DNA from: an uncultured archaeon
GTDB lineage: Archaea > Asgardarchaeota > Thorarchaeia > Thorarchaeales > Thorarchaeaceae
Direction of reading: 5' to 3'
DNA: 32,000 nucleotides
Assembly (NCBI GenBank): GCA_964354495.1
Contig: CAYHAA010000001.1
Location: forward strand, 487,049-519,048
In this document: in pieces, positions 1 to 16,263 of the stretch
How positions within the stretch are numbered: the first letter of the stretch is position 1
Layout of the letters: each line of letters begins with the position of its first letter
Made by a program: the position numbers and the translations under genes
The notes under the pieces: model-generated
What the model saw: the letters and a program-made list of their open reading frames with translations, nothing else
What the model was told of the DNA's origin: nothing
The model's database searches: none

Positions 1-1197
1 TACTACACTGCCACTTTGCTCAATAGCACTTATGTCATCGACGACTACACTGTCAAATTCAAATTAAACTATCCAAGCACATCTTTCACTTGGCACCTTG
101 GCAACATAGCTGGATATATACCGAGTCCCACAGCAATAGAAACATACGGAATAGATAACATCAACGATCACCCAGTTGGAACAGGACCATTCAAGTTCGT
201 AAGCAGAGTCCCTGACCAAGAGGTAGTTGTTGAGGCAAACAGAGACTGGTGGCAACTGAACCATGGTGAGGTAATCACGGTGGACGAAGTCATTTGGACT
301 CAGGTTGCTGACGCAGCAACGCTAGCCATAGCTCTCCAAAATGGCGAAGTTGATCTTATGGATGGAAGATTGAACAATGAAGACTATCACCTTCTCTCAG
401 CGAATCCCAATCTCGTACGATACGATATTAGCTCTTCGAGTTCTCGTCGCTGGCTGACATTCACCATGAATGATACAGTGTGGGATGTCTTCCCCAACAA
501 GACCATGAGACAGGCATTCGCCTACGCCATTCCGTATGATGAGATAATCGAAGTTGGTCTTTCAGGATACGGTCAGAGACAGTATAGCTTATTGGCACCA
601 GAACACCCGAATTATATGCCAGTCGGAGAGAAATACGAATATAACACAACTAAGGCACTTGAGCTCATTGCAGAAGGGGGATTCACTCCTCCAGTAGCGG
701 TCACTCTTCATATCACTCCTACGCACTATGGCGTTTCCGAGGTTAACATTGCTGCTCTCATAAAAGAACGCGCTCTGCCTGCTGGATTCGATGTGAGCAT
801 TGTGCAGGAGGAATATACTTCCTTCAAGACACGGTATCAGAAAACTAGTGAACAGGAAATGTGTCTATGGTCTTGGGCGGCGAATCCAGAAATAGTATGG
901 TTCGATATGTTTATGAGATCGAACACATGGGGTCCTGGATACTCAGAGGCTCTTGGTGGTGATATGGCAGTCCTCTACCCGTATGTTGATGACCTAATAA
1001 CTGAAGCGACAGGAACCACAAACTCTACCCGATATAGTGAGATCTGCGTCGAGCTTCAGGAATTGTGGGCTGAATGGTTGCCTAACATTTGGATTTGGAG
1101 AGAAGTCACGTATCGGTTTGCTAGAAGCAATATTCAAAATCTGGTCTATGGCCCTACGTTCTACGTCTACCATCTTCACGATGTTATAAAAACCTGA
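1..1197 (+). CDS. ABC transporter substrate-binding protein, family 5 (peptide/nickel; OppA/DppA-like), 5'-truncated by window edge
   Basis: Frame 1 is open from base 1 (YYTATLLNST...). Contains VIDDYTVKFKL, PVGTGPFKF, EANRDWW, ALQNGEVD and RQAFAYAI motifs typical of SBP_bac_5. Several N-x-S/T sequons (NST, NDT, NKT, NTT) fit an exported archaeal glycoprotein. Confidence 0.92.
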   Translation, partial: YYTATLLNSTYVIDDYTVKFKLNYPSTSFTWHLGNIAGYIPSPTAIETYGIDNINDHPVGTGPFKFVSRVPDQEVVVEANRDWWQLNHGEVITVDEVIWTQVADAATLAIALQNGEVDLMDGRLNNEDYHLLSANPNLVRYDISSSSSRRWLTFTMNDTVWDVFPNKTMRQAFAYAIPYDEIIEVGLSGYGQRQYSLLAPEHPNYMPVGEKYEYNTTKALELIAEGGFTPPVAVTLHITPTHYGVSEVNIAALIKERALPAGFDVSIVQEEYTSFKTRYQKTSEQEMCLWSWAANPEIVWFDMFMRSNTWGPGYSEALGGDMAVLYPYVDDLITEATGTTNSTRYSEICVELQELWAEWLPNIWIWREVTYRFARSNIQNLVYGPTFYVYHLHDVIKT

Positions 1198-1223
1198 TAA
1201 CCTGAATTCAAAGGCACTTAGCC

Positions 1224-1259
1224 ATCTGGAAGCAAAACTGCTTCCAGATACTTTTTTTT
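1224..1259 (+). terminator. Hairpin plus oligo-T terminator after the SBP gene
   Basis: Perfect 10-bp stem ATCTGGAAGC(1224-1233)/GCTTCCAGAT(1240-1249), 6-nt loop, followed by T8 (1252-1259) and further T-rich sequence. Confidence 0.75.
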
Positions 1260-1680
1260 CTTTCGTTTTTGATATTTCTTATATTCGAGTAATATTCCAT
1301 TTCCAAAGCTTTCGGTGCTTATTCTAAACTAGCTGTATGAAATCGAAGAAAACACGTGAATCAACGCTAGTCTATGCTACTGTAATCAAAAACAGATTGC
1401 TCTTTAGAACTCAATATCCGCAACAATCCGCTGTAGCATTACTTAGCGAAGAACCCATACCGTGAAATATAGCTGAGTTCTTCCAGTCGGCTTTCGGTTT
1501 GCACTTTAGTGCATTCCGTGCACTACACGGAGCCACATGATTTGTCTACACAACTGCGCACATTTCAAGAACTGCTTTGGCCTTGAGGATTTTCATATTC
1601 ATTGAGTACTTGTTTGGTTTTGAGCACTATGAAGCATTTGCTTACACAACATCATGATTAATCAAGAAAGCCGCTAGGCA

Positions 1681-2898
1681 CTACATTTGGTGTACTACAC
1701 TTCCTTCTTTCATGACCAATTGAACATTTCGTAGATGCTGAAGATCCAAGAAGGGTTCGCCCCTTACGACTATTAAATCCGCAATTTTCCCGACTTCGAT
1801 GGTTCCTATTTTGTTCTCCATTCCCAATGCCTGTGATGCAACTCCGGTAGCTGCTGCTATGGCTTCGAGCGGTGTCATACCGCCTCTAGTCATAAGCTGA
1901 AGTTCCTCAACGAATCCATCAAAGGTCACATAAGACCAGCCTGCATCGTCTCCAGCACCAATCCTAACTCCCAAGTTTTTCAAATGCCCAAGAGTTTCGA
2001 GTTTATTTTGGAAGTAGGGCCAATACTTGCGATAGTCGTTCGAATCCTCTGCTAGGTGCGCAAAGCGGGTATAGGTTGCTCTCATAGTGAAGTGCACTAT
2101 TATTCTCGAATCTGCGATTCTTTTTCCGATTTCAGGGTGGTACTTCCCATCGCGATCGCTTGGGTGCTTGAGTCCCACATGGGCTAATTCATCTATGCCT
2201 GATTCTACGGCATTCAAGACCCCCTGTCGTCCGGCAGCATGTGCCACGACTCTCCTTCCTAGGTTATGTGCCTCGTCTACAATCGCTTTAAGCTCTTCCA
2301 CAGAGAATGAAGGATACATACCATCTGTCCCTGGAGTACCGCCACCAGTCGCGATAACCTTAATGAAATCCACACCTTCCCTCTGTACAAGGCCCCTTAC
2401 AGCTTTTCTCAGTTCAGTTGTTCCGTCGCATTCTATAGCCATGTCCCTTCCATGACCTCCTGTTGTTGTCAAAGGTCTGCCACAAACGAACAGCCGAGGT
2501 CCACTCCATACCCCATCATCCATTGCCTTCTTGAGGTCTAAAGTTGTGCGATTGCGACCACCACAGTCTCTGATAGTTGTGACTCCAGCACGGAGTGCCG
2601 TTCTTGCATTGTTTTCCGCCTTTAGTGTCAAGATGTTGTCAGAGTCATCCCTCATATGTTCAATGAAGCGCCCGTCTGGTGTGCCCGTGAGATGCGCATG
2701 CAAATTGATCATGCCTGGGAGAATAGTCCCATCAGAAAACTCGACCTTCTGAGCGCCCTGGGGGGGGATTTCAGAAAGTCCACTGCTAACCTCTATTATC
2801 TTTCCGTTTTCGATAGTCACGATAGGATCTCTAATAGGCTTAGAGCCCGTCCCATCAAGAAGATATTTCGCCTTCAGTGCTATCAAGATTATTACCAT
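1681..2898 (-). CDS. Metal-dependent amidohydrolase (imidazolonepropionase / Xaa-Pro dipeptidase-like TIM-barrel)
   Basis: TILPGMINLHAH (HxH), FIKVIATGG (bridging Lys), VVAHAAG, LAHVG, GDDAG and C-terminal GTIEVGKIADL. Start is uncertain: ATG 2898, or TTG 2886 after the SD-like GGTAAT. The track's 2949 start looks too long. Confidence 0.9.
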   Translation of the reverse strand: MVIILIALKAKYLLDGTGSKPIRDPIVTIENGKIIEVSSGLSEIPPQGAQKVEFSDGTILPGMINLHAHLTGTPDGRFIEHMRDDSDNILTLKAENNARTALRAGVTTIRDCGGRNRTTLDLKKAMDDGVWSGPRLFVCGRPLTTTGGHGRDMAIECDGTTELRKAVRGLVQREGVDFIKVIATGGGTPGTDGMYPSFSVEELKAIVDEAHNLGRRVVAHAAGRQGVLNAVESGIDELAHVGLKHPSDRDGKYHPEIGKRIADSRIIVHFTMRATYTRFAHLAEDSNDYRKYWPYFQNKLETLGHLKNLGVRIGAGDDAGWSYVTFDGFVEELQLMTRGGMTPLEAIAAATGVASQALGMENKIGTIEVGKIADLIVVRGEPFLDLQHLRNVQLVMKEGSVVHQM

Positions 2899-2949
2899 TA
2901 ATATCACAGTGATACGTGTATATAAGATAGATGGACTCAAAAATAGCAT

Positions 2950-3046
2950 CGTGATACATATATATCCGATAATTAGGTCTAAAAAACGGAGATTTTAATA
3001 AATTGCGGATGAATCGCTTTCTCCCCCTGAACGGGAAGGTGATTGA
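2950..3046. promoter_or_regulatory. Divergent promoter region (amidohydrolase / SDR)
   Basis: ATATATAT run at 2958-2965, TTTAATAA at 2994-3001 preceded by an A-rich BRE-like tract, and SD GGTGAT just before ATG 3047. Confidence 0.4.
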
Positions 3047-4045
3047 ATGTCGTTCCTGATAACCGGTGCAACTGGCCTGATTGGACATTATATAATTCGT
3101 GAGCTTCTTAATGAAGACGAGAAGAATAAAATCATTGCCTATGACCTCTATCCAAATATGGAACTAATCAAGGACATCGCCGATAGGATAACGATTGTGC
3201 GCGGCGATATTCTTGACAAGACGAAGCTCGTATCCGTAGTTGAGAAGTACAGGCCGGAATACATACTACATGGAGGAGCTCTGCGATATGATGCATGTTA
3301 CGAGAATCCGACGGAATGCATCAAAATCAATTGCATTGGAACTAACAATGTCTTTGATGCCGCATTGCAGGTCAAAGCAAGAAGAGTAATCTACATGAGT
3401 AGCGGCAATATATACGGAACTGCAGATACTTATTATTGGAAGAAAGAACCTATCATCGTAGATGAAAATGATCCCTCAACATCCCTACAGCCTTATGGCG
3501 TTACTAAGTGGGTGAATGAAGCCATGGCTCATACTTACCGCATCCGACATGGACTTGACACCTTAGGATTCAGAATCACTGGCGTATGGGGCCATGGAAG
3601 GTACGGAGGGAAAGGAACAGTTGGCTTGATGAATGAGTTCATTCGAGATGTTGGTCTCGAAAAAGCCGTTGAAGTGCCCCCAACACTCATGGGAAGAGGC
3701 AACTTGACTTGGGTCTACGGGAAAAACGCAGCCAAATGGTTGGTTCAGTCCTGTTATGTTGAATCTCCCGCTCGTAGGATTTATTGCATGGGTGTTAGTC
3801 CACCATACTCATTTGGTGACGTATTGAAAATCCTAAGAAGACTTGTTCCTAATGCTAAGATTGCTTCGACTCAAGGATCATCTGATTCCGCTGAAGCGTC
3901 GAAGAATCTGGGCAAATTCGAAGGGTATGTAGATTGCGCCAGAATGTATAGGGAGCTTGGATTTAAGCAGGAGTTTGACACAGAACTAGCGATTAAGGAT
4001 TTCATAAACTCCCATCGCGAGGCTGCAAGTATGCCACCAATCTAG
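3047..4045 (+). CDS. NAD-dependent epimerase/dehydratase family protein (extended SDR)
   Basis: TGATGLIG Rossmann motif, RGDILD, catalytic Ser region (YMSSGNIYG), YGVTK (YxxxK). SD GGTGAT upstream. Confidence 0.92.
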   Translation: MSFLITGATGLIGHYIIRELLNEDEKNKIIAYDLYPNMELIKDIADRITIVRGDILDKTKLVSVVEKYRPEYILHGGALRYDACYENPTECIKINCIGTNNVFDAALQVKARRVIYMSSGNIYGTADTYYWKKEPIIVDENDPSTSLQPYGVTKWVNEAMAHTYRIRHGLDTLGFRITGVWGHGRYGGKGTVGLMNEFIRDVGLEKAVEVPPTLMGRGNLTWVYGKNAAKWLVQSCYVESPARRIYCMGVSPPYSFGDVLKILRRLVPNAKIASTQGSSDSAEASKNLGKFEGYVDCARMYRELGFKQEFDTELAIKDFINSHREAASMPPI

Positions 4046-4200
4046 GAATCCAGCACACCCATGATGATTATACTGTATGTGCTCAGGATTCTAGACAATA
4101 CTGAAATCTGTGTAGTTCCAAATGGGTCAAGAAAACACCTGCGCGATAACTGAGTAGTATTAATCACGACACCAATTTGATTCATCTCTTGAGTGACTTC

Positions 4201-4266
4201 GAAATCATGATGAGTGATATAGGAATGATTTGGAATCGAATGATTATGGTGGTCGCGATTGATTTC
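4201..4266 (+). ncRNA. Candidate box C/D guide sRNA
   Basis: C box ATGATGA 4207-4213; 11-nt guide; D' ATGA 4225-4228; C' ATGATTA 4240-4246; 12-nt guide; D TTGA 4259-4262; flanking GAAA/TTTC stem. Lies in a 227-bp gap between convergent genes. The D box is non-canonical and no target was identified. Confidence 0.3.
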
Positions 4267-4272
4267 TTTCAG

Positions 4273-5625
4273 TTATGAGGGCTTCAGGAAATCAGCTAGT
4301 ATAGCAACATTATTGCAGTTCTCCAAGGATTTCGTTATATTCTTCAACTTCTCTGCCTTCCTTTGGGAGATTGCCTTGGTTGAAAGACTCATGAATTTTC
4401 TATCAAGCTCTGTTGAGGACATATCACGTGGGCGTTTGATATAGTCGCTTTCTATTTTCGATCCATCTTTGAGCTGAATGTCAACCTTTGCCGCCATTCG
4501 ATGATCAAGCCCCATTTTGTCCAATTGCGGATCGATGTTTATATGCACTTTCTCAACCATTTTTCTAATATCTGAAGATTCTACTCTTTCCTCAGAGTAC
4601 TCATCGACGCCCAATTCTCCATCGAGTAGAAAAGCAGCTGCAGCATAGTTCATGCTCATCTGAGCAGATGATATGTTATCATAGGTCTCGCCAACATTGT
4701 TTTTCAATGCGCCACTTGTTGTATTGATAATGACTGAATCAATACTTGCCGGATTGACATCGTTTTCCGCCAGCACACCTGCAATTGCATCTGCAACTGC
4801 ATGAAAACTCGTACACATTGGGTACTTCTTCAGAACGAGGCCACTCATGAGATAAACAGATCCTAAATCCTTTGCAATTTGATCAATTGTCGGATCTGAT
4901 GAATGTGCAGAGCAAAAACCACCTTGTTTGGATTCAAAGATATCTCGAAATCCCGTGAATCCGCGTTCTGCAAGAAAGGCTGCCATCAACCCTCCTTGAG
5001 CAGACCTCGCATTCACAAGGCGCTTAGCCATGGCTTTGAATCCGTAAGTCAGCAGACCCCCAACATAGGGCCCACAAATACCCATTGCATTGACGATTCC
5101 TTCCTTATCTAAGCCCAATGATTTCGCTGTGGCTACAGCAGCTCCAAAGGTAGAACAAATCGCGGTTCCATTCCATCCATGAAAAACAGACCAACCCAGA
5201 CCACTGCGTACTCTAGCTGAGATTTCATGACCCGCTACGACTGCCGTTATCATATCTTGGCCAGTGATTGATTCTAGTTTCTCAGCAGTGGCCAGAACAG
5301 AGGTTATAACTAGAGCTCCCGGATGAATGCCAGTTGGTACATATGAGTCATCGAATTCAAAAGCGTTTACTGCGTTGGCATTAGCAAGGACTGCATTCAC
5401 ACAGGGCACTTTCTTGTTATGACCCCATATTGATGCTTCCTTCTTTCCACCCCATTCCTTGATCAATTCTGTGACTGTGGATACCCAAGAACACTTGGAG
5501 CCAAAGAGACCACACCCTAGCATATCAAGGATATCATCCTTTGCAGCCTGAACAAGCTGTTTCGGGATTTCGTTAAATTCCAATTCATATACCCAATCAG
5601 CAAGAATTTCACTAATTGTCGCCAT
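4273..5625 (-). CDS. MmgE/PrpD family protein
   Basis: AKDDILDMLGCGLFG, ANAVNAFEFDDS, IHPG, VVAGHEI, SAQGGLMAAFLAERGFTG, KKYPMC..FH and terminal LDRKF motifs. SD AGGTGA upstream. Confidence 0.92.
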   Translation of the reverse strand: MATISEILADWVYELEFNEIPKQLVQAAKDDILDMLGCGLFGSKCSWVSTVTELIKEWGGKKEASIWGHNKKVPCVNAVLANANAVNAFEFDDSYVPTGIHPGALVITSVLATAEKLESITGQDMITAVVAGHEISARVRSGLGWSVFHGWNGTAICSTFGAAVATAKSLGLDKEGIVNAMGICGPYVGGLLTYGFKAMAKRLVNARSAQGGLMAAFLAERGFTGFRDIFESKQGGFCSAHSSDPTIDQIAKDLGSVYLMSGLVLKKYPMCTSFHAVADAIAGVLAENDVNPASIDSVIINTTSGALKNNVGETYDNISSAQMSMNYAAAAFLLDGELGVDEYSEERVESSDIRKMVEKVHINIDPQLDKMGLDHRMAAKVDIQLKDGSKIESDYIKRPRDMSSTELDRKFMSLSTKAISQRKAEKLKNITKSLENCNNVAILADFLKPS

Positions 5626-5645
5626 TCATTTCACCTGGTCCGCAC

Positions 5646-5966
5646 TCATTCTTCAGGAGTAACACGCCGAATTCTAAAAACGACTGGGCGAGCAGCGTCA
5701 GGGCAGGCGTGTTCAACAACGCCATCTCTAGCCCAAGGATAATCAAATCCAGTCCGCATCGGTAGGACTTTGTGCATCATCGTGGCTAATGCGCTATAGC
5801 ATATAGTCCCCTCGATTCTGCCCTCCTTGAAGATTAGCTTATCACCAGGTTTGTAGTATCGACAGGGGCCTTTGCCTGCTGTATCTTCTCCTCTCAATCC
5901 GTGGACTGATTTCACTTCTGCTTCAACATCATATGTTTTATACCAAGGTTTTTCTTTTTTTGCCAT
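5646..5966 (-). CDS. TIGR04076-family small Cys-containing protein
   Basis: Pattern C-x3-KPGD-x-I/F...IC-x-SAL...CPD-x4-VVF-x-I-x-R recognised from this family. SD GGAGG 7 nt upstream of ATG. Confidence 0.75.
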   Translation of the reverse strand: MAKKEKPWYKTYDVEAEVKSVHGLRGEDTAGKGPCRYYKPGDKLIFKEGRIEGTICYSALATMMHKVLPMRTGFDYPWARDGVVEHACPDAARPVVFRIRRVTPEE

Positions 5967-6035
5967 TATCTTGCCTCCTGCAACTAAGGAAAAAGGCCAA
6001 AACGAAAACCGTTGGAGGCTTCCGCTGGCATTATC

Positions 6036-6878
6036 TTATTGAAAACCACCTCTCTCTAATATCCCCAGTTTGTAGACGCATGCAATGTGTCTTTTACACT
6101 GAGGGCATCCTCTCTCACATTCAATCAGGCTCTCTACATTTCCGCTTGTCTGTGCGCCCTTAATACTTGCGACAAGATTGTAGATTCTTTCAACCTCAGA
6201 GTCTTCACCCTCAACCACCATGGTTGTCGAACCCTCAGCACCTTGGATGCCGCCTGCAGCAATCACGACAGCTTTTACAGATGCCATGCTCATGATTGCT
6301 TCACGTTCAGTGAATACTTCTCCTACTATTGGTATTAGTCCCACAGCAGATCCGAAAGATTTGTCTATGGTTACTCTACCTGAAGCAAGGACGGCTTCGT
6401 GTATTGTGCCTGGTATTAGTTTCTCTAGTCCCACCGCAATTATCACTTTCGCGCCTTGTGACATAAACCCTGCAATCGCCTTGCCCGGGATGTGTCCGAG
6501 TGGTGCTGCGGCTAACATGGCGGCATCTCCGTCCACATCAATCGCATTTGCACTTGCAATGATTATATCTCCCTTTGCAAGATTCGCTACCACCTCATCA
6601 ATATCTGCATCGATATTTCTCGATTCACGGTTCTCTATAAGGACACAATGTGGCTGTTCCTGCTTCTTTAGGGTGTTCATGGTTCCCCTTGGTGAGATTC
6701 GGCCTCCGATTCTAAGTTTATACCGTAGCAATTCCTCACATATCGCGGAAACCGTAGTTCCTCCTTTGAGAACGACTTTTCCATCTCTAAGGGCAGTCTG
6801 CACGTCATTTCTAGCGACAACAGCTTTTGCAATCACCATTTTTGCTTCAGGAACAGTAAGTGTGAGCTGCAATTTCAT
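6036..6878 (-). CDS. Conserved hypothetical protein with C-terminal four-Cys motif (possible Fe-S); possibly NagB/RpiA/CoA-transferase-like fold
   Basis: Long ORF in the same-strand run with neighbours. LTVPEAK..IAKA, LKGGTT, IIASANAID, VGLEKLIP motifs; C-terminal CERGCPQCKRHIAC. Start placed at ATG 6878 after SD-like GGGGTCAT. Confidence 0.75.
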   Translation of the reverse strand: MKLQLTLTVPEAKMVIAKAVVARNDVQTALRDGKVVLKGGTTVSAICEELLRYKLRIGGRISPRGTMNTLKKQEQPHCVLIENRESRNIDADIDEVVANLAKGDIIIASANAIDVDGDAAMLAAAPLGHIPGKAIAGFMSQGAKVIIAVGLEKLIPGTIHEAVLASGRVTIDKSFGSAVGLIPIVGEVFTEREAIMSMASVKAVVIAAGGIQGAEGSTTMVVEGEDSEVERIYNLVASIKGAQTSGNVESLIECERGCPQCKRHIACVYKLGILERGGFQ

Positions 6879-6898
6879 AATAGATGACCCCAATCCGA

Positions 6899-7885
6899 TT
6901 AACTCACTTTCTTATCGACTCTGACAACTGTAATGATGTTATTCCCTGGATATGCAACTGGTGATGCTGGGACACCTAGAATGAAACCATCTTGTGGGGC
7001 ATTAATGACTTCGAGTTCATTTCCCAGGAGATCGACGATTGTTGCTAGCTGATCTCCTGATTTGACCTCCTGATTGATCCTGCATCTCTCACCAAGAAGA
7101 AGAAGGCCACCATGTCCGCATTTGATATTTGTCCCTTTTAGAACGCCCCATTCTTTTGCTGACTTGTGCTTTCCTTCAAGCATTTTGATGTATCTCATCA
7201 CATTCATGATTGCTGCGATGAATGTATCAACACTAGACGCTAGTTCATCGGGCATACGATTATTGGATCCTCCGCGCTCCAATATTACTGCTGGAATTCC
7301 TTCCACAGCACAAGAATTCAAAAGTGTATTCGGATGATGGCTCTCGTGTAGATATGGCCAATCAGGACCTATTGCTTTTCCAAGCTCAATTGACTTTGGA
7401 TCATCACTAATCATTATTCGATTAAGAAGATAAAAAAGAGCACCTCCGCCATGTAGTGAAACAACGTAATTGGAACGCTTCACTATTTTTGTGAAGTATG
7501 TGTGAACGAACACCTCTGATATTGAGCCCTTTGCATTTCCTGGAAACAGTCGATTCATATCGTAGTTATATCTCTCATCGGGATTTCCACGAGTCCCTTC
7601 CTCATATGCTCTAATGTTCAGCACCGGGACACCGATTACAGTACCTGCGACATCATTTGGATCGATATTGTTCAGTAGTTTCACTATTGCCAATGTGCCT
7701 TCTGTTTCATCACCATGGCAACATGCTTCAAGAAGAAGCGTGGGTCCGGCTTTCTTGCCATTGAGAACTATCACCGGAATTCCTAGCGGAGTTCCATCCG
7801 ATCGCGTCGAAACTTGCAGCCATGCAGAGTTTCTCTCTCCGCTCTTCTTCAACATCTGAGAAATATCTGTGATTATCATTATCAT
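6899..7885 (-). CDS. Succinylglutamate desuccinylase / aspartoacylase family (M14-like zinc deacylase)
   Basis: CHGDETEG (HxxE Zn ligands), DMNRLFPG, SLHGGG, catalytic ILERGG, C-terminal barrel-sandwich domain (GGLL...VKSGDQLATI...INAPQDGFI). Start ATG 7885 or 7879. Confidence 0.9.
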   Translation of the reverse strand: MIMIITDISQMLKKSGERNSAWLQVSTRSDGTPLGIPVIVLNGKKAGPTLLLEACCHGDETEGTLAIVKLLNNIDPNDVAGTVIGVPVLNIRAYEEGTRGNPDERYNYDMNRLFPGNAKGSISEVFVHTYFTKIVKRSNYVVSLHGGGALFYLLNRIMISDDPKSIELGKAIGPDWPYLHESHHPNTLLNSCAVEGIPAVILERGGSNNRMPDELASSVDTFIAAIMNVMRYIKMLEGKHKSAKEWGVLKGTNIKCGHGGLLLLGERCRINQEVKSGDQLATIVDLLGNELEVINAPQDGFILGVPASPVAYPGNNIITVVRVDKKVS

Positions 7886-7915
7886 TTTCCCTACAATATT
7901 GAGCGTTACACAGAA

Positions 7916-7923
7916 TATATAAA
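7916..7923 (+). promoter_or_regulatory. TATA box (TATATAAA) in divergent promoter; probable leaderless transcript for the PLP enzyme operon
   Basis: TATATAAA lies 25 nt upstream of ATG 7949, the usual archaeal TATA-to-start spacing, in a 63-bp gap between divergent genes. Confidence 0.5.
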
Positions 7924-7948
7924 GGTGATTTTTGCCAATCATTTATTC

Positions 7949-9406
7949 ATGACGAAGCAGTATAAATTCCACATGTATCAGAAATTGCAGCAAAATAAAT
8001 CGAATATTTTCACGGATATTAAAAAGGAATTTGAGAATATTGGACTGACCAAGGAACTGAAAGGAAACATAGGTCTTGGTGGTGGTTCAGGAACCCCGCC
8101 AATGTTACCACTCGATGTATTTGACGCAATGCAGAAAGCCAGTCGAGAAGTTGTGAACCTGACTAAATATGCAGATGAAATCCGAGATATCGTGAAAGAT
8201 GTCTACGGTGACGGATATGACGCTGCTGTAACATGTACGGCCGAAGCAGCATTATGGGTGTCATACGAGTCGCTGTTCACCCCGCCCCTCTCAGGAAGAG
8301 GCGAGAATTATAGGTCCGCTTACATTGCGCCCTATGAACGTCATCTTCATCATCAGGGTGGATACGGAAGACCATTTCCGCCAAAATACAAGGACTTGTT
8401 CTCCAATCGTGGCGTCACAGCAGGCGACCTTGGAGTACAAGGCAAACGGCTATCAAATCTTGACACCATCATTGTACCTCTAGAAGGAGCGAAATATGAG
8501 GTTCATGGTATAAACTACCATGCCATTCCTATTCTGACCTCTGTAGACCCGGACAAATCAATTGAAAGGATAAGATCTGTCGCTGAACGTCATTCTGATG
8601 TACTTGCAGGATTTGCTTCTCTCGGATACGATACCATCGGATATGGATATGATGTCAAAGATAAGGATGGAACACCGAGATTACAGAAATTGATAGGCAA
8701 GACATCTCAAGAGTATGATATACCATATGTATGTGATAATGCACGTGGTCTGCCTCTTGCAGGGACAGATCCAAGAAAGAATCTGTCAGACGTCATTCTG
8801 TATAGTATGGACAAAGCTGCAGGCGGTCCTACATGTGGGCTACTAATAGGCAAAGAAGACTCAATGGTTCCGATACGGAAAGCCATGGGTATTCATGGAT
8901 CTCGTGAAGGAACTTCATCATCCTATGGAAAAGCAGGATATGTTACTTTCGATCCTGGGAAAGAAGCATTGTCTGGTCTGGTTGTAGCTCTGAAGAAACT
9001 TCGTGATAATCCGCGGCGTATCTTCAAGAACGTGGACACAATGAATAAGGTGGTAGCCGACGAATTCAAGAAATCGGAGCTGCTATCGCAGGATGGAGTG
9101 CATATAACGAAATCTTACAATGGCGCAGCGGTTGAGGTAAACTATGTGGATACATGGAAAGAGGATACGGCGAATATCCCGATATTCAGCATTGAGGACA
9201 TGTATTCTGGTACGAATCTAATCCAGAGTGGATTGGCAAATGCAGGCATCCGCCCACCCCTTTGTTATGATGGAAACATCCCCATTGTATTGGGACAGGG
9301 TACTCTGAATGACAATGATGAGTTGATTGTTGATAGAGCCGAGGTTGCAGTGAGGGGTCTTGTCAAAACGCTTGAAGTAATATCAAGATACGCAAAGATG
9401 AATTGA
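7949..9406 (+). CDS. Uncharacterised fold-type I PLP-dependent enzyme (SelA/DgaE-like superfamily)
   Basis: YVCDNARG (Asp that pairs with the PLP ring N), YSMDKAAGGPTCGLLIG (Schiff-base Lys at 8813-8815), TCTAEAAL, plus family-specific YERHLHHQGGYGRPFP. Start moved to ATG 7949 because the 7814 start overlaps the divergent gene. Confidence 0.75.
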   Translation: MTKQYKFHMYQKLQQNKSNIFTDIKKEFENIGLTKELKGNIGLGGGSGTPPMLPLDVFDAMQKASREVVNLTKYADEIRDIVKDVYGDGYDAAVTCTAEAALWVSYESLFTPPLSGRGENYRSAYIAPYERHLHHQGGYGRPFPPKYKDLFSNRGVTAGDLGVQGKRLSNLDTIIVPLEGAKYEVHGINYHAIPILTSVDPDKSIERIRSVAERHSDVLAGFASLGYDTIGYGYDVKDKDGTPRLQKLIGKTSQEYDIPYVCDNARGLPLAGTDPRKNLSDVILYSMDKAAGGPTCGLLIGKEDSMVPIRKAMGIHGSREGTSSSYGKAGYVTFDPGKEALSGLVVALKKLRDNPRRIFKNVDTMNKVVADEFKKSELLSQDGVHITKSYNGAAVEVNYVDTWKEDTANIPIFSIEDMYSGTNLIQSGLANAGIRPPLCYDGNIPIVLGQGTLNDNDELIVDRAEVAVRGLVKTLEVISRYAKMN

Positions 9407-9421
9407 AGTTAGGTGATTAAT

Positions 9422-10492
9422 GTGGATTATGTTAACAGCATGCTAGAAGTTATCGGCAATACGAAGTTGCTGAAATTGAACCGAGTCGGTAAGGATGTCA
9501 AAGCCAATGTTTTTGTTAAGCTTGAACATCTCAATCCAAGCGGGAGCTATAAGGATAGAATGGCGCTCTCAATGGTAGAGGCGGCAGAACGAGGGGAAAC
9601 TTGGAACGGTAAGAAACTCCCTCCTGGAGGTACTGTCTGCGATGCTTCGGCTGGAAACACAGCTCCAGCACTTGCATTCATATGTGCTCTGAAAGGATAC
9701 ACTGTCAAACTGTGTTCCTATGCTCATTTCTTACATTCAACAGATAAGAATCAGAGTGTGAGAATGAAGATTTCATCTGCCTATGGAGCAAAAATATATC
9801 CCTGTCCATTGCCGTGCGATGACGTGCTTCAAAAACTCAAAACCGACAAAGAACGCAGATATGCATCAATAATCAACGGCAAGGTTCACATGAATCAACT
9901 GGAGCGTGATGACCCGAATACTGTCTGGGTCGACCAAATCTATAATGAAGCAAACGTCAATGGCCAGTTAGCTATGGGATATGAAATCTATCGTCAATTA
10001 GAAGGAAAAATAGATGCATGGGGCGCATCCATAGGTTCAGGTGCTACATTCCTCGGTGTGGCAAGAGCACTCAAAGAAAAAGGCGTGGAACCATACACCT
10101 TTGGAGTTGTACCTGAAGGTGGAACAAGCCTAGTTGATATCAGTGCGGACATAGCAAAGAGTGTTACCATGGGTAGACCTGAGCTACGAATGAGAATAGT
10201 AAAGATGCTCGGTTTGGAAAAATGGATCACTGAAGACTCGATTGTGGAAACTATCTATAAAGCCGGATACCCCCACGAATGGTTCGAAGTGAGTCCTAAT
10301 GATGCCAGAGCGATGGCGAATCGACTATGCGAAGAAGAGGGCATCTATTGTGGTATGTCCTCAGGTGCGAATGTCTACGCAGCTCTAAAAGTTGCTAAGA
10401 AAATGAAACGGGGTCAGAACGTCGTTACTGTCATTGTTGATCGACGTGACAGATACCTTGACGAGTATCCTAACGATCAGTATGTCGTCTAG
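9422..10492 (+). CDS. Cysteine synthase / cystathionine beta-synthase family PLP enzyme (fold type II), divergent
   Basis: IGNTKLLKL, VKLEHLNPSGSYKDR (PLP Lys 9551-9553), ASAGNT, SIGSGAT, EEGIYCGMSSGAN, VVTVIVD...Y. GTG 9422 follows SD GGTGAT (9412-9417). Confidence 0.9.
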   Translation: MDYVNSMLEVIGNTKLLKLNRVGKDVKANVFVKLEHLNPSGSYKDRMALSMVEAAERGETWNGKKLPPGGTVCDASAGNTAPALAFICALKGYTVKLCSYAHFLHSTDKNQSVRMKISSAYGAKIYPCPLPCDDVLQKLKTDKERRYASIINGKVHMNQLERDDPNTVWVDQIYNEANVNGQLAMGYEIYRQLEGKIDAWGASIGSGATFLGVARALKEKGVEPYTFGVVPEGGTSLVDISADIAKSVTMGRPELRMRIVKMLGLEKWITEDSIVETIYKAGYPHEWFEVSPNDARAMANRLCEEEGIYCGMSSGANVYAALKVAKKMKRGQNVVTVIVDRRDRYLDEYPNDQYVV

Positions 10493-10511
10493 ATAGAATG
10501 GAGATGAATTC

Positions 10512-11681
10512 ATGCCAATCAATCTTGAAAGAGCAAAATCCATTATGACCGAGAAGGGGCTTGATGCAATACTAGCATCATCCCCCGAGAATTTCTTCTA
10601 TGCCAGTGACCTATATATTCCATTCGTCGACAGATTCCGCGGGTTTCTTAGCGGATTTGGATCCTTTGTCCTTATTCCTAGAGAGGGCAACATGATACTC
10701 TCAACAACGGCTCTTGATCAGGATTTGGCAAAGATAACATCACCCATTAAGGATCAGCGATACACACGAACGTGGGCATACTTTAGGAGAGATAAGGGAA
10801 AGGAAGTTGAGGTCTATGAGAACCCAGTCGAATCCCTGACCGAAATCTTGAAAGAAAGAGGATTAGCGAATGGTGCAATTGGCATTGAGGAAAAAACGCT
10901 TGCTATTGCTGATTTTAGGCAAATTGCCAAGAGCTTGTCAAAAGCCAATTTTGTTGATTCTTCAAAGACCTTTCTTGATATCAGATCTGTCAAAATTCCT
11001 GAAGAGATTTCCAGAATAAAGAAAGCCTGTGAGGTATCAGAGATTGCATTCGATGCCGCTTTTTCTGTGGCTCAAGAGGGTGCAACTGAGGGAGAAATCC
11101 TAGGTGCATTCCAGCGTTCGGTGCTGGACCAATGTGGCTTCATTCCCAAAGGAATATTACATCAAAACTTCACCACTGGTATTCATTCAGCAACAGTCAG
11201 AAGAGGTGAACCATTTGATCACAAATTGAAGAAGGGCGACGTAATGAGATTTGACGGTGGTTCTATATACTTGGGATACCGTTGTGACTTTGCCAGAACT
11301 CGTGTTTTGGGAAGAGCCGAAGATAAGGTAAAGAACGTCTATAATGCACTTGTTTTGGCTGAAGAGAAAATCATCAGCATGATAAAACCCGGTGCGAAAT
11401 TCTCTGATTTGTTCAAAGTTGGCCTGAAGACAGTGCAGGGAAGTGGGTATCCAGAATTCGTTAGAAAGCACTTTGGTCATGGTCTTGGGCTAATTACTGA
11501 AGAAGAGCCTATCATAGGACCCACAAATGATGCGCTTATTCAAGAGGACATGGTTCTGTGTGTTGAAGTACCTTACTACTGGGTAGGGGTTGGCGGATTC
11601 AATGCAGAGGATGTTGTCAGAGTGACTTCTGATGGGACTGAGTGCTTCACGCCAAACCTGAGTAAAGAACTCGAAATGTGA
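10512..11681 (+). CDS. Xaa-Pro peptidase family M24B (aminopeptidase P/prolidase-like)
   Basis: N-terminal creatinase-like domain (LDAIL..SPENFFY), RSVKIPEEI, and intact metal ligands FDGG..GYRCDFART, HFGHGLGL, CVEVP, AEDVV. Confidence 0.92.
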   Translation: MPINLERAKSIMTEKGLDAILASSPENFFYASDLYIPFVDRFRGFLSGFGSFVLIPREGNMILSTTALDQDLAKITSPIKDQRYTRTWAYFRRDKGKEVEVYENPVESLTEILKERGLANGAIGIEEKTLAIADFRQIAKSLSKANFVDSSKTFLDIRSVKIPEEISRIKKACEVSEIAFDAAFSVAQEGATEGEILGAFQRSVLDQCGFIPKGILHQNFTTGIHSATVRRGEPFDHKLKKGDVMRFDGGSIYLGYRCDFARTRVLGRAEDKVKNVYNALVLAEEKIISMIKPGAKFSDLFKVGLKTVQGSGYPEFVRKHFGHGLGLITEEEPIIGPTNDALIQEDMVLCVEVPYYWVGVGGFNAEDVVRVTSDGTECFTPNLSKELEM

Positions 11682-12094
11682 GAGTGAGAGAGTTGAAGTA
11701 CGAGAGCAGCTTTTTGAAACCTCGAGAAAGTGAAGACATTCCCCATCATGACAGTTCAATCATAAAGCAAACTGGAATGTCGTATGTGCTTCTCGATAAT
11801 ATCCACTATCCTGATGCAAATATAAGGGTCACAACTAGATACATCCGAAATGTCCCGGATAAGGCTCCTGCATATGTTGAATTACATACACATGATGTTG
11901 ACCAGATTTTCATCTTTCTGAGTGACCCGGGAAATCATGATACTCTGAAAATAGAAGTTATTCTTGAAGATGAGGTCTATAATGTGGAGGCACCAGTGAC
12001 AGTCTTCATTCCGAAGAACATCCCCCATACACAAAGAGTATTGAGTGGAACTGGCCGATTGGTTACGATCCTGATGAAAGGAGTCTATCCATAG
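11678..12094 (+). CDS. Cupin-domain protein
   Basis: LHTHDVDQIFIF and VFIPKNIPHTQ match cupin motifs 1 and 2. The GTG start overlaps the M24 stop (GTGA), indicating translational coupling. Confidence 0.75.
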   Translation: MRVRELKYESSFLKPRESEDIPHHDSSIIKQTGMSYVLLDNIHYPDANIRVTTRYIRNVPDKAPAYVELHTHDVDQIFIFLSDPGNHDTLKIEVILEDEVYNVEAPVTVFIPKNIPHTQRVLSGTGRLVTILMKGVYP

Positions 12095-12104
12095 TCATCA
12101 GGAT

Positions 12105-13535
12105 CTAACCTTCATTCTGTCCATATTCCCAGATAACATAGGAGATGAGTTTTACAAATCCACCTATGCCATCAACTTTGTCAGTGCCATCGATTAACAG
12201 GTATTCGTCGCTCCCGTGACTCTCACCTCCAGCACCTACACATCCCGTAGCGAATGGAAGTTTCAATGGATCATTATTGAATAGAGATATGGGGATTGTA
12301 GCTAATGATGTAGGCCACACTTGGAATCTCGTGTTCGAAATGTTGTATGCGCGAATCAGTGCTTTAACAATCTCTTGATTGGCTCTTGTCCTACATGATT
12401 CAACACTCGCAAGCTTTGAAACTGTAATATCCGAGAAGTTATGATTATCAAGATGATGAATAATTCTATCCTGAATGGTTTCTGTTTTTTGATTTGGCAC
12501 TAATCTTATGTCAATCTTTGCCGTTGCTTCTTCAGGAATGACAGCTTCCGGTCCTGTACCAGTATATCCAGCCCAAATACCGTCAATATTGATTCGGCAC
12601 GTGAAGAAGAGCTGTTTTAGCAGGTCAAGAGCGTTGTCTTCCTCATTGATTAGATTCCGAACTCCTAGAGAGGATTTGTATGAGTCTACGCTGAAGTCCA
12701 ATGCAAGTTCTTCAAGAAGTCCGCGAAACTCATCATCAGGTCCAACAATATCCTCCATGAATCCCTCAACAAGTACTTTATTGCTATCATCAGATACCAT
12801 TGATTTTAAGGCCATAATCAATCGCCAGACTGGGTTATCCACTACAGGACGATGCATACTATGAATTTCGTGCTCTGATGGTCCTTTTTGCCATGACTTG
12901 CCAGATGCCTTCAGCTCGAGATATAAGACTCCTTTGTAACCTAGTTGGACTTTTGCAATTCCTTGAGAATTCTGAGAAGGAAATGGCATATAGAGCGAAT
13001 TTGCTTTTTCAAGAAGTGGCCTATACTCCTTGATGAATCTGGGCAGCGTGGGACTGAACATCTCTTCTTCACCATCAAATACCGTAATGAGATTACAGTT
13101 GATGCTCCCTACCGCTGCCTTCACAGATTCAATAGCATTCAAAATACCAGCAATCTTGATTTTGTTATTCACACCTCGTCCGACCAGAAGCCTACCCTTT
13201 TCTGGGTGCGTAATGATTCGGCCTTCATAAGGAGGAATAGTCCATTTTTCTTCTTCCACAGGATTGCTGTCATAAGCACCGAAAAGGAGAAGGGTCTTCT
13301 CTCTATCAATCTCACTCTCGTAGAATCCATAGACAATTGGATTTCCATCTCCAGGGTAGACTCTTACATCAGTAAATCGGAGTTGAGTCATCCATTCTGC
13401 AATTAACTCTGCAGATTCCTTTGTACCATGCTGTTCAACAGATACACTTGGTTGTCTAACAAGCTTCTGTAAATCATTAAGATATTTCGCTTGTTTTTTT
13501 TCAATAAGACTGGCTATTTTCTTATATTCGTCCAA
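12105..13535 (-). CDS. M20/M25/M40 family metallo-hydrolase (dipeptidase/ArgE/DapE-like) with atypical metal ligands
   Basis: LQKLVRQPSVS, GNPIVYG, W...PYEG, GRG, FDGEEE, GYKG, NIDGIWAGYTG...VIP, DIRLVPNQ, SHGSDEY. TTG start with SD-like GGTGTT. Confidence 0.88.
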   Translation of the reverse strand: MDEYKKIASLIEKKQAKYLNDLQKLVRQPSVSVEQHGTKESAELIAEWMTQLRFTDVRVYPGDGNPIVYGFYESEIDREKTLLLFGAYDSNPVEEEKWTIPPYEGRIITHPEKGRLLVGRGVNNKIKIAGILNAIESVKAAVGSINCNLITVFDGEEEMFSPTLPRFIKEYRPLLEKANSLYMPFPSQNSQGIAKVQLGYKGVLYLELKASGKSWQKGPSEHEIHSMHRPVVDNPVWRLIMALKSMVSDDSNKVLVEGFMEDIVGPDDEFRGLLEELALDFSVDSYKSSLGVRNLINEEDNALDLLKQLFFTCRINIDGIWAGYTGTGPEAVIPEEATAKIDIRLVPNQKTETIQDRIIHHLDNHNFSDITVSKLASVESCRTRANQEIVKALIRAYNISNTRFQVWPTSLATIPISLFNNDPLKLPFATGCVGAGGESHGSDEYLLIDGTDKVDGIGGFVKLISYVIWEYGQNEG

Positions 13536-13597
13536 AGGAACACCAATCTAGTGTGTTTTTCTTCCTACATATTTCATTTTCGATACTAAAGATACTG

Positions 13598-14800
13598 CTA
13601 CACTGATGCAATGACATTACTATGGGGTTTCTTTCTAATGAACAACGCACTAGCAAGTGCAGTCAAAGTCAGCAATGCTGCCAATTTGAATATGAGAGAG
13701 ATATCCCATACTGTAACCAATACCCCAGCGAGAACCGCACCGATTGTCGAACCGACATCAAACATAGTTGAAAGGTACGCAGCGGCTACATTTCTTGCGG
13801 TTGTATCACATCGATCAGCAAGCATTGTCCATTCTGAAACAACTCGAAGTCCAACTCCAAACCCAAAGATTACCATCAATAGAGTCAGAAGGTAGAAATC
13901 AGATATTTCGACGAGTAGTAAATATACAAATGTAAGAAGTCCGCTTGCTGCAAGAATGCACCACTTATAGTCAACTTTGTCAACAAGTCGTCCTGCTGGA
14001 ATTCTCAAAATCGCGTCAGCAAGACCCCTGGTACCAATGAGAAATGCAATGAGTGCCGGTGCAAGTAGAAGCGTATTCGCTGCATAGACAACAAAGAATG
14101 TTATATAAAAGGAGTAAGTAATTGCATAAGAGAACCTCGAGAATGTCAGAATCATAAGGTCTCTTGAGTGGAATATGTTGTTCAGTGAGGCAATCGGGCT
14201 ACTTCTGTGGGCATTTACCCGAACTTGTAGTGCTTTCGCCTTTTTTATGGCTAGTAGCGGTAGTAACCCGAACAGCGGAATGACGGCGGCTGCCTGAAAT
14301 AGTTCTCTGTATGACAAGAACGCCAGCAAATATGAACACAGGTATGAGCCAAGACTGTGTGATAGTCCATACGATGTAAGAAACAAGCCCATTATTTCAC
14401 CAGTTTTGTCTGGCGTTGCCAGGTTCTGTGAAACTGAAATAGCCATGGGAACCAACGCGGCAATTGAAATGGCATGAAGAACCTGGATTGGATAGAAATA
14501 AAGTAGTCCTGCAATTGAGTAAAAGAATTGTGTCAAGCTTTGACCAACAGCCGCCAGCAGTATGACATATGCTGCACTGAATCGTTCTGATAATACGCCT
14601 AGTGGAATTTTCAACGCCATCAATGAAAATGATAATACACCAATTATAAGTCCCAAATCAAAGAAACTGGCTCCTATCTCTGTAAGATAGAGTGGGATGA
14701 TTGGACGTGTTGTTTCAACACCTAAGAAGACAAAAACCGACGAAAAAATCAAAATATAGAGATCAATTGGATAGTGCTTCTTGTCTGTCGTTTCCATCAC
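13598..14800 (-). CDS. Major facilitator superfamily transporter
   Basis: About 12 hydrophobic segments. Motif A in both halves (GVLSERFS; GRLVDKVD), PIIPLY, G..MGLF, DVGSTIGAVLAG. Confidence 0.92.
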   Translation of the reverse strand: MMETTDKKHYPIDLYILIFSSVFVFLGVETTRPIIPLYLTEIGASFFDLGLIIGVLSFSLMALKIPLGVLSERFSAAYVILLAAVGQSLTQFFYSIAGLLYFYPIQVLHAISIAALVPMAISVSQNLATPDKTGEIMGLFLTSYGLSHSLGSYLCSYLLAFLSYRELFQAAAVIPLFGLLPLLAIKKAKALQVRVNAHRSSPIASLNNIFHSRDLMILTFSRFSYAITYSFYITFFVVYAANTLLLAPALIAFLIGTRGLADAILRIPAGRLVDKVDYKWCILAASGLLTFVYLLLVEISDFYLLTLLMVIFGFGVGLRVVSEWTMLADRCDTTARNVAAAYLSTMFDVGSTIGAVLAGVLVTVWDISLIFKLAALLTLTALASALFIRKKPHSNVIASV

Positions 14801-15225
14801 CCCGAGTTTTCAGTGAGCCACAATGTAGTCATGACTAAGTAGCGCTAAAAAACAAGTAAATAAACACGGCGAATTTATTATTATTCTCGACGTATTTACT
14901 TCGAAATCTGGCATTTATCGGATGATATCTGTATACCGTGCTCTACCATAGTAGGTAATATTCTTCATACGCATATTTCAGACATCTGTAGTAACGATTC
15001 AGAGAAGCGAGCTGCTTTGGGATTGTGTCGGAAATCAGGCGAGTCTGCCACTTCCTTTGTCTTGCCTCTTATCCTCTCACAAACTGCTTTCTCGGAGTCC
15101 ATTCACTAGACCGGATGCAAGAGCAAAGGAATCAGCGATATCATCGGAATTCGCATTCTAGGTAGACAGGAATCAACGGATGTTGCAGAAGTCAGTCACA
15201 ATGGAAGTACAAGCAGAATAACAAA

Positions 15226-15717
15226 CTAGTCCATCAACTCTGCCCGAAGGGAAAAGCATCTGGCTCTGTTATCTTCATCTTCGATGACCTTAATAATTCC
15301 GCGACCTACGAGTTCATTGACACGCTCACGAATGATTCTTCTTGAGGCGGTCCCCCTCTCTGCTCTGACAGCAGCTGTTATCTGACTTATGTTCAGTGGC
15401 CGAGATGTGGCATCCAATGTCTGAATGATTCGCCAACTGATATCATCTTTCTTGAGGTCGCCAAATCTTGATTCAAGTCTCTCCGTCTTGGTGAATTTGG
15501 ACATTAACCTGACCATTCCATCGTAGAAGTCGAACCCTTCCCTGATGACCTTGGCTGAGGTACGAACCTCTTCAATACCCGGGCCAACTCTCTCGATGAG
15601 TTCCTCCAGTCTTGCCAGTCTCATGGAGATCTCATCTAGTCGATTCTGCACCTCTTCGATCGTGAGACTCGCTGACTGACCGGAATCTGCATCATCGACG
15701 GTTTTCTTCTTGCTCAA
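15226..15717 (-). CDS. Hypothetical protein: N-terminal coiled coil plus C-terminal winged helix-turn-helix (probable DNA-binding protein)
   Basis: Heptad-like IEEVQNRLDEISMRLARLEELI; DISWRIIQTL...PLNISQITAAV...ASRRIIRERVNELVGRGII followed by a beta-wing. Probable start TTG 15717 (MSKKKT); the track's 15813 extension is unconvincing. Confidence 0.7.
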   Translation of the reverse strand: MSKKKTVDDADSGQSASLTIEEVQNRLDEISMRLARLEELIERVGPGIEEVRTSAKVIREGFDFYDGMVRLMSKFTKTERLESRFGDLKKDDISWRIIQTLDATSRPLNISQITAAVRAERGTASRRIIRERVNELVGRGIIKVIEDEDNRARCFSLRAELMD

Positions 15718-16219: not shown

Positions 16220-16222
16220 GCC

Positions 16223-16260: not shown

Positions 16261-16263
16261 AGA

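Follow-up and report, generated by a model that had tools for sequence, protein, structure and literature searches.

A mobile 25-gene island in an uncultured Thorarchaeia archaeon carries a co-conserved enzyme set of probable catabolic function

The locus considered here is a 25-gene island of an uncultured Asgard archaeon of the class Thorarchaeia, the right half of which lies in a 32,000-nucleotide stretch of DNA, hereafter the window (GenBank assembly GCA_964354495.1, contig CAYHAA010000001.1, positions 487,049 to 519,048, forward strand). Among described systems, the ectoine clusters of Halomonas and Ruegeria (DoeABCD and EutABCDE) combine the M24, AstE/AspA, class-III aminotransferase and fold-type-II pyridoxal phosphate (PLP) enzyme families (PMC3187862). 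With these clusters the island shares a dedicated importer and, apparently, a logic of opening an amide or amidine, deacylating and deaminating. It differs from them in carrying six extra conserved proteins, namely a PrpD-like enzyme, a TIGR04076 protein, a protein of 280 amino acids (aa) with a putative ISOCOT-like core and a Cys3-His motif, a new PLP enzyme, a cupin-like protein and an M20-like protein.

The yxe operon of Bacillus subtilis, which serves the breakdown of S-(2-succino)cysteine, encodes an importer, the M20 deacylase YxeP and YxeQ, a protein of unknown role, and its route involves the YxeL acetyltransferase and the YxeK monooxygenase or the class-I lyase 2SL (PMC9706529). Like the island, it is an accessory set that joins an importer to an M20 protein, and its substrate, a dicarboxyethyl-substituted amino acid, is chemically close to iminodisuccinate (IDS), the substrate of a PrpD-family epimerase that the PrpD-like protein of the island matches. 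We take YxeQ to be a MmgE/PrpD-family protein, and the yxe route may be the nearest chemical analogy for the combination of a PrpD-family protein, an M20 deacylase and an importer. The M20 protein of the island, in contrast to YxeP, appears to have altered metal ligands, and its two central PLP enzymes have no counterpart in yxe. Identity with the yxe system was rejected, no GNAT, luciferase-like monooxygenase or Lyase_1 (2SL) family being found among the island genes screened. At the level of single enzymes, the best solved relatives of the PrpD-like protein are IDS epimerase and cis-aconitate decarboxylase (Irg1/CAD), both of which act on small polycarboxylates without a coenzyme A thioester; the match, although nearly full length, is a remote one (E ~1e-33, no identity computed).

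Our favoured reading, to which we assign a probability of about 0.55, is that the genes of the island work together in a single catabolic system, which acts on a small, acidic derivative of an amino acid or on a very short, unusual peptide. The likeliest substrate would bear an N-acyl or (di)carboxyalkyl ('succino'-type) substituent, and any single named compound has at most about one chance in ten. Equivalog models and literature searches matched no described pathway, in line with the sequence-only reading of the window, an earlier annotation by a model without database searches, which had recognised none. In general character this would be a catabolic gene island of a known kind, and it holds at least four protein families without a characterised member.

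Conserved neighbourhoods provide the evidence for linkage. Regions of about 20 kb around matches of the new PLP enzyme were searched by tblastn with every window protein. This enzyme is present in 21 of 301 Asgard genomes, and the 24 genomes of the same genus gave no match. Ten genes, encoding the PrpD-like, TIGR04076, 280-aa and AstE-like proteins, the new PLP enzyme, a PALP-family enzyme, and the M24, cupin-like, M20-like and major facilitator superfamily (MFS) proteins, lie together in seven long-contig genomes (G164, G102, G283, G027, G233, G128 and G140); parts of this core occur in G245 and G209, where the contigs are cut off. Identities of the core proteins to those of the window range from 44% to 79%, and an orthologue of the substrate-binding protein (SBP) joins the core in at least four genomes. 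The genes are a functionally linked accessory set in which 10-11 of the 13 window genes are co-conserved. The linked set proposed in the sequence-only reading holds for ten of its 13 genes and for the SBP, whose orthologue is clustered in other Asgard genomes, and is not supported for an amidohydrolase and a short-chain dehydrogenase/reductase (SDR). The random patchwork, which the same reading had set against its own proposal, is not what is seen, the core co-occurring in other Asgard genomes.

The core is organised in three modules: A, comprising AstE, the 280-aa protein, TIGR04076 and PrpD; B, comprising PALP, M24 and the cupin-like protein; and C, comprising the M20-like and MFS proteins. 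The new PLP gene heads module B here and lies in module A in three other genomes. Module order and strand vary between genomes and the set is never dispersed, an arrangement, reshuffled yet together, that would not be expected if one frozen block had simply been inherited. The same nine of the 301 Asgard genomes hold orthologues, at more than 60% identity, of both the new PLP enzyme and the 280-aa protein, and G209 is a tenth genome with such a PLP orthologue, its contig ending there. Close homologues of the island genes derive from Candidatus Thorarchaeota or other Asgard archaea.

The island was gained as a block by horizontal transfer, as the flanks are contiguous in a close relative and the base composition is deviant. 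In the closest relative (G191; 90-91% DNA identity), homologues of G000:C1:457229-472674 (G000 being the present genome) and of the sequence from 502285 onward are only 58 bp apart, whereas 29,610 bp, carrying the 25 genes, separate them here. At the right junction, G000:C1:502285 pairs with L078 position 19923, 58 bp past the end of the left-flank homologue, and the G191 match to window 15200-20300 starts at query position 38. The left end of the island lies 14.4 kb upstream of the left edge of the window and the right end at window position 15236, and so the unit comprises 25 genes and 29.6 kb; the limits of 1 to 14800 assigned to the cluster earlier were, on the left, an artefact of the window edge. 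Window 1-4100 found no match in the 24 same-genus genomes searched, in 22 of which window 15200-20300 is present; the proposed accessory status is thus upheld, since the closest relative lacks the island and the search of the same genus did not find it. Its G+C content of 43.2%, compared with 47.8% for the genome, falls below that of all 477 sampled 29.6-kb windows (mean 47.8%, standard deviation 1.2%). The island is clearly mobile. Among the 24 of 25 island genes that were screened, Pfam gave no integrase or transposase family; neither Rfam nor tRNA scans of the window and of the 15 kb before it produced a match, and the junction alignment contains no flanking direct repeat.

Positions 1-14800 of the window are filled by 13 non-overlapping, tightly packed open reading frames, to which families were assigned by Pfam and NCBIfam profile searches of the window proteins. 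The features of the right half of the island are as follows, in window coordinates.

1 to 1197, forward strand: SBP of family 5 (SBP_bac_5, Dpp/Opp/Nik type; Pfam E = 1.7e-51), with its 5' end outside the window
1681 to 2949, reverse strand: Amidohydro_1 protein, similar to the Caulobacter-type Xaa-Pro dipeptidase (Pfam E = 4e-39)
3047 to 4045, forward strand: extended SDR (Pfam Epimerase, E = 1e-31)
4273 to 5625, reverse strand: MmgE/PrpD-family protein (MmgE_PrpD_N and MmgE_PrpD_C), last gene of module A
5646 to 5966, reverse strand: small TIGR04076 protein of module A (54.1 bits against a cut-off of 33)
6036 to 6878, reverse strand: 280-aa protein without a family, module A, with a modelled ISOCOT-like core and a C-terminal Cys3-His motif
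6899 to 7888, reverse strand: putative zinc deacylase of the AstE/AspA family (M14-like; AstE_AspA_cat E = 8e-23), first gene of module A, start approximate
7949 to 9406, forward strand: 485-aa protein without a Pfam family, a PLP enzyme of fold type I as judged from its model, heading module B here
9413 to 10492, forward strand: PALP-family fold-type-II PLP enzyme, CysK/CysM/CBS-like (E = 4e-57)
10512 to 11681, forward strand: Creatinase_N and Peptidase_M24 protein (Pfam)
11678 to 12094, forward strand: 138-aa cupin-like protein (Cupin_2 only at E = 0.023), its start overlapping the M24 stop by 4 bases
12105 to 13535, reverse strand: M20-fold protein of module C (M20_dimer and a weak Peptidase_M20 match)
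13598 to 14800, reverse strand: MFS_1 transporter of module C (E = 1e-38)
14801 to 15236, no strand: non-coding right end of the island, after which the sister-genome sequence resumes at 15237

The layout agrees with the alternating divergent and convergent units described from the sequence, with no housekeeping gene in the 13-gene block, and the profile searches, with the structural model of the 485-aa protein, bear out the list proposed for the 13 genes, including two PLP folds, four hydrolase folds, an SDR, PrpD and two Cys-bearing unknowns; the cupin assignment is the only weak call. None of the enzymes reached an NCBIfam equivalog cut-off.

The PrpD-like protein gives 198 bits with MmgE_PrpD_N and 100 bits with MmgE_PrpD_C (cut-off 32.1 each), and it was rejected as a 2-methylcitrate dehydratase PrpD (TIGR02330, 54 bits against 458; NF006943, 59 bits against 575). 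As judged from sequence relationships, it would belong to the IDS-epimerase/cis-aconitate-decarboxylase branch. Orthologues with 54-76% identity occur only in the Asgard clusters and the next relative is 38% identical, so that the Asgard proteins form a subfamily of their own. That closest non-Asgard relative lies beside an AstE/AspA gene and genes for gamma-glutamyl transpeptidase, a CN-hydrolase and RidA. The present genome has just two MmgE/PrpD genes, both of them in the island.

In the AstE-like protein, AstE_AspA_cat scores 81 bits against a cut-off of 25, and among named proteins of solved structure N-acetyl-L-2,4-diaminobutyrate deacetylase matches best (E = 2e-15, residues 36-151 only). 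The translation contains HxxE, His and Glu motifs; H-G-D-E, LHGGG and ERGG, which we take to be the zinc ligands, are present, and the ligands therefore appear to be kept. For the TIGR04076 protein, C35, C56, C88 and H86 are invariant in eight orthologues, and the papers found on this family give no function.

The 280-aa protein matches no Pfam or NCBIfam family. Its 466 homologues occur in Asgard archaea, Bathyarchaeia, Bacillota and Chloroflexota, and residues C254, C261 and C267 are invariant, with H264 nearly so. The predicted structure (predicted local distance difference test, pLDDT, 90) finds its best fold matches in eIF2B subunits, ribose-phosphate isomerases (RpiA) and DeoR-C at Z-scores of 7.5-8.8, values that make an ISOCOT-like core of the eIF2B/RpiA/DeoR-C type a borderline assignment. 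In bacteria and Bathyarchaeia, family members lie beside Asp/Glu-racemase-type and DUF917 proteins and, in one locus, beside M20, PALP and RidA. A predicted complex of the 280-aa and TIGR04076 proteins scored 0.00, which counts neither for nor against binding.

A 255-aa paralogue of this protein, about 35% identical and without the Cys3-His tail, is encoded elsewhere in the genome (G000:C7:108331-109068; L064:8008-8775), and a search with the 280-aa protein found homologues, most of them of the paralogue's type, in 124 of 301 Asgard genomes. The paralogue gene directly follows one for an ADSL-like class-I lyase and precedes an ABC-2 transporter gene. A tie to fumarate-type lyases was rejected, as the ADSL-like adjacency recurs in only one to two of 12 other genomes, all of the same family. 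The neighbouring ATP-binding cassette (ABC) ATPase gene (L064:7045-7988) consists of two overlapping reading frames, of 187 aa (the N-part of ABC_tran) and 127 aa (the C-part), a split that could be a frameshift or an assembly error.

The new PLP enzyme has no Pfam model and no sequence match in the Protein Data Bank (PDB) at E < 0.3. Its family includes 1108 homologues among 8000 candidates scored, and an SMDK motif carries the invariant K289. An AlphaFold model (pLDDT 81) gives only generic fold-type-I matches at TM-scores of about 0.5, equidistant from known subfamilies, and an identity as a SelA- or DgaE-like enzyme was rejected (TIGR01437, 22 bits against 385; SelA is one of many equally distant fold matches). 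In the family tree, the cluster-type Asgard sequences form one group, with two sequences of unknown origin inside it, next to a bacterial group. Many Bacillota have homologues that are 55-57% identical. Three bacterial loci with such close homologues, from Bacillota and a Treponema (L051:9027-18291, L052:9541-14485 and L002:7877-11467), were read, and in all three they lie beside a protein of about 80 aa and one of about 600 aa with an N-terminal KamE/OraE-like corrinoid domain. Two of the loci contain DUF6917, which is thus shared with the Asgard island, and one of those two also RidA; in L051 a KamB-like reactivase subunit scores 209 bits against a cut-off of 210. These loci may constitute an undescribed B12/PLP-dependent system. 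The present genome has no counterpart of the B12-binding and KamB-like partners, so that this bacterial context does not carry over. A literature search found no paper on DUF6917, on thiohydantoin desulfurase or on Thorarchaeota together with PrpD. A second group of homologues, 42-44% identical to the window protein, is found in about ten Asgard genomes (L036-L041, family f22 and others) with no other cluster gene within 10 kb.

The most conserved cluster gene is that of the PALP enzyme, with 76-79% identity among the Asgard clusters. It has an insertion of about 45 residues and CysM and CBS as best solved relatives (E ~1e-37), and it was rejected as a cysteine synthase CysK/CysM (TIGR01136, 177 bits against a cut-off of 344). 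The translation shows both the PLP-lysine motif SGSYKDR and the SAGNT loop, and so the type of chemistry is probably kept. Orthologues with 57-68% identity occur in Nitrososphaeria, Anaerolineae and other Asgard lineages, and a scan for related loci with this protein yielded five, two of them new, one having M24 8 kb away and one only a Dpp transporter. For the M24 protein, the best NCBIfam match is PRK14576 (130 bits) and the best solved relatives are archaeal prolidases (E ~2e-30); its five metal-ligand positions appear to be kept. The cupin-like protein shows YVELHTHxVDQ and PHxQ (an HxH...H pattern) invariant in nine orthologues, and its nearest Atlas clusters have no Pfam family.

The M20-like protein is nearest to PRK06446 (228 bits against a cut-off of 369) and, among solved structures, to the CP2 carboxypeptidase of Sulfolobus (E = 2e-45). 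All eight orthologues conserve G[AS]YDSNP and RG[VA]NNK, where M20 enzymes presumably have HxD and the bridging Asp, with Ala/Ser and Asn replacing His and Asp. A similar change is seen in an M19-like protein encoded upstream of the window (L050:11584-12720, L050 being the directly upstream stretch, which was scanned over 15 kb): LQGG, DI[AS][QH]LS and SNSN stand at the canonical ligand positions in all cluster orthologues, and Q and N occupy the positions of the two His residues of the solved M19 homologue 2I5G. With these substitutions, which are kept in all orthologues, the M20-like and M19-like proteins would each hold at most one metal.

The transport genes extend the set beyond the window. 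The SBP begins, with a hydrophobic N-terminal anchor, about 390 bp before the left edge of the window; the best NCBIfam match, GsiB, scores 95 bits against a cut-off of 594, and no equivalog was found. Orthologues with 59% identity divergently adjoin DppB of the core-linked Dpp transporter in G102 and G140, which makes the SBP part of the system, and homologues with 44-46% identity lie in the cluster flanks of G128 and G233. In other genomes, genes for the M19-like protein, a C45 autoproteolytic hydrolase, DUF6917 and DppBCDF precede PrpD, and SBP, a class-III aminotransferase, an AspDH-like dehydrogenase and a second PrpD paralogue are divergent from DppB. Here the same flank genes are found within the 14 kb that precede the window, and the partner of the SBP is probably DppBCDF, 7-9 kb upstream. 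The MFS gene always adjoins the M20-like gene and its product, which reached no NCBIfam cut-off, is 44-73% identical in the other clusters. Two window genes are private to this genome. The amidohydrolase (NF051886, 252 bits against a cut-off of 500) has no homologue in other cluster loci and none in five cluster-bearing genomes (E <= 1e-20), and the SDR reached no equivalog and has no counterpart in other cluster loci. Both are local additions inside the island; lying mid-island without being conserved, they indicate that the island took up unrelated genes at least once.

In the favoured catabolic system, the substrate would be taken up by the Dpp-type ABC system with its family-5 SBP, by the MFS carrier, or by both. 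Its amide bonds could then be opened by the AstE-like deacylase and the M24 protein, with the C45, M19-like and M20-like proteins assisting, while the PrpD-like enzyme might epimerise, dehydrate or decarboxylate the polycarboxylate, either released or still attached. On the amino-acid part, the CysK/CBS-like enzyme may catalyse beta-elimination or beta-replacement, with a further elimination by the new fold-type-I PLP enzyme; these steps would give keto acids and ammonia, together with sulfide if the leaving group is a thiol, and a final deamination would follow. For the 280-aa, TIGR04076 and cupin-like proteins our guess is a metal- or thiol-dependent isomerisation or lyase step.

Several features favour breakdown as the direction. 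Importers and hydrolases, up to seven of the latter, dominate the island, and the 24 of 25 genes screened with Pfam or NCBIfam include no ligase, ATP-grasp, non-ribosomal peptide synthetase or opine-synthase family; RidA in related contexts, and the amino-acid-type importer of a bacterial locus described below, point the same way. The position of RidA beside the new PLP enzyme in one bacterial locus points to an enamine-forming eliminase, and the recurring set of AstE, PrpD, M24 and CysK-like proteins to an acidic derivative of an amino acid whose substituent is amide-linked or of the dicarboxyethyl type. By analogy, the contexts in other lineages would favour breakdown over synthesis and a small acidic substrate. 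The locus in question, a bacterial operon of GCA_040960625.1 (L054:639-11886), encodes an HTH-cupin regulator, a CysK-like protein, a LivK-type ABC importer, M24, a ThrC-like protein, PrpD and PALP. It resembles the island in that a 61% identical PALP orthologue lies beside a PRK14576-type M24 and a PrpD-family gene, together with two further PALP enzymes, and differs from it in lacking the AstE, TIGR04076, 280-aa, new PLP, cupin-like and M20-like proteins and in using another transporter family. This uncharacterised operon comes nearest to an independent second occurrence of the core concept, and may represent an analogous pathway that is easier to study.

Other observations weigh against a single catabolic system. 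Five core proteins belong to families without a characterised member. Up to seven hydrolases exceed the need of one small compound and fit a multi-substrate 'peptide utilisation' island equally well. In the L054 operon the M24 and PrpD proteins are only 28-29% identical to those of the island, and hence the recurrence is at the level of the family rather than the orthologue. As the cluster-bearing genomes are related or have exchanged the block, the nine occurrences are not nine independent observations, and the non-conserved amidohydrolase and SDR in mid-island demonstrate the uptake of unrelated genes. Neither a regulator nor a shared operator was identified, and no repeated motif was seen in five promoter-side spacers (read by eye, with no statistical motif search).

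Several of these points apply directly to the rival that we take most seriously, a scavenging island for multiple peptides and amino acids in which independent genes travel together as a mobile block without forming one pathway; we consider it unlikely while allowing it an appreciable share of the probability. Thorarchaeia have been described as peptide degraders, and such an island would readily account for the up to seven hydrolase families (amidohydrolase, AstE, M24, M20-like, M19-like and C45), the two kinds of transporter, the capture of the amidohydrolase and SDR genes and the evident mobility. It would not predict modules that are reshuffled between genomes and never lost or dispersed, nor the recurrence of M24/PrpD/PALP and PrpD/AstE sets in unrelated contexts, and it leaves aside that the core holds five non-hydrolase proteins of unknown function and that the island contains the genome's only PrpD-family genes. 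The direction of the pathway would be reversed if the island served the biosynthesis and recycling of an aminopolycarboxylate or opine-type metallophore or solute, with a CysK/SbnA-like enzyme forming a C-N bond, the PrpD-like enzyme tailoring the product, the MFS protein exporting it and a NikA/CntA-like SBP with its ABC transporter re-importing the metal complex. We regard this as very unlikely. The PALP enzyme matches the SbnA family at 135 bits, the SBP weakly matches NikA and CntA, the MFS protein weakly resembles a siderophore exporter, and the small Cys/His-rich proteins and the cupin-like protein with its three His residues could handle metal; however, the SbnA (cut-off 350), NikA/CntA and siderophore-exporter scores are far below their cut-offs and no nicotianamine-synthase-like protein, opine dehydrogenase, ATP-grasp or NRPS-independent siderophore (NIS) synthetase was seen in the island. 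Five or more hydrolases would have no place in such a synthesis, and the bacterial relatives adjoin importers, RidA and catabolic enzymes.

The chances are slimmer still for an archaeal catabolism of ectoine, hydroxyectoine or an N-acetyl-diamino acid, in which M24 would act as a DoeA-like ring hydrolase, AstE as a DoeB-like deacetylase, the aminotransferase as DoeD and PALP as a EutB-like dehydratase. All four families of the Doe/Eut pathway are indeed present in the island, including the class-III aminotransferase, the AstE-like protein has an N-acetyl-diaminobutyrate deacetylase as best named solved relative, and an ornithine-cyclodeaminase (OCD-family) gene lies near the cluster, albeit in one other genome only. 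The scores, nevertheless, are low for DoeA (60-61 bits against 575-613), DoeB (TIGR02994, 82 against 403 and only over residues 53-169 of the AstE-like protein) and EutB (29 against 413); the M24 protein is closer to prolidases and PALP is of the CysK/CBS rather than the threonine-dehydratase type. No DoeC aldehyde dehydrogenase and no EutA- or EutC-like gene was found among the island genes screened, and PrpD, TIGR04076, the 280-aa protein, the new PLP enzyme and the cupin-like protein are left unexplained.

A narrower proposal, which lies within a catabolic interpretation and which we put forward as a quite unlikely one, is that the 10-gene core encodes an anaerobic pathway, not yet described, that acts on an amino acid with a dicarboxyethyl ('succino') or carboxyalkyl substituent; examples would be thiol adducts of the S-(2-succino)cysteine type and aminopolycarboxylates of the iminodisuccinate type. 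The substrate would be prepared by an epimerase or lyase of the PrpD family, and the step that needs oxygen in the known route would be taken over by the two PLP enzymes. If true, it would yield new enzymology from the fold-type-I PLP family (>1000 members), the ISOCOT/Cys3-His protein, TIGR04076 and DUF6917.

Asgard archaea are uncultured or barely cultured and their roles in sediments are read from genomes, a picture in which a conserved, mobile island of 25 genes that matches no known pathway marks a gap. The island provides a context for uncharacterised families, namely the new PLP enzymes, which retain 55% identity between archaea and Bacillota, the 280-aa protein, TIGR04076 and DUF6917, and offers a clue to the non-PrpD branch of the MmgE/PrpD family, which is poorly understood. 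The SBP would be an accessible starting point, and the identity of its ligand would probably name the pathway.

Some minor features of the island and its surroundings were also seen. The first gene of the island (L050:839-1969) encodes a third PALP-family enzyme, of 376 aa, which is not conserved in other cluster loci. A 750-bp spacer between the AspDH-like and dppB genes (L050:5256-6006), with no Rfam match and no tRNA, contains a G+C-rich stretch of about 50 bp that is possibly structured. To the right of the island, a DUF1015-serC pair (window 16264-18709) belongs to the genus backbone, being present in 22 of the 24 same-genus genomes at 66-90% DNA identity.

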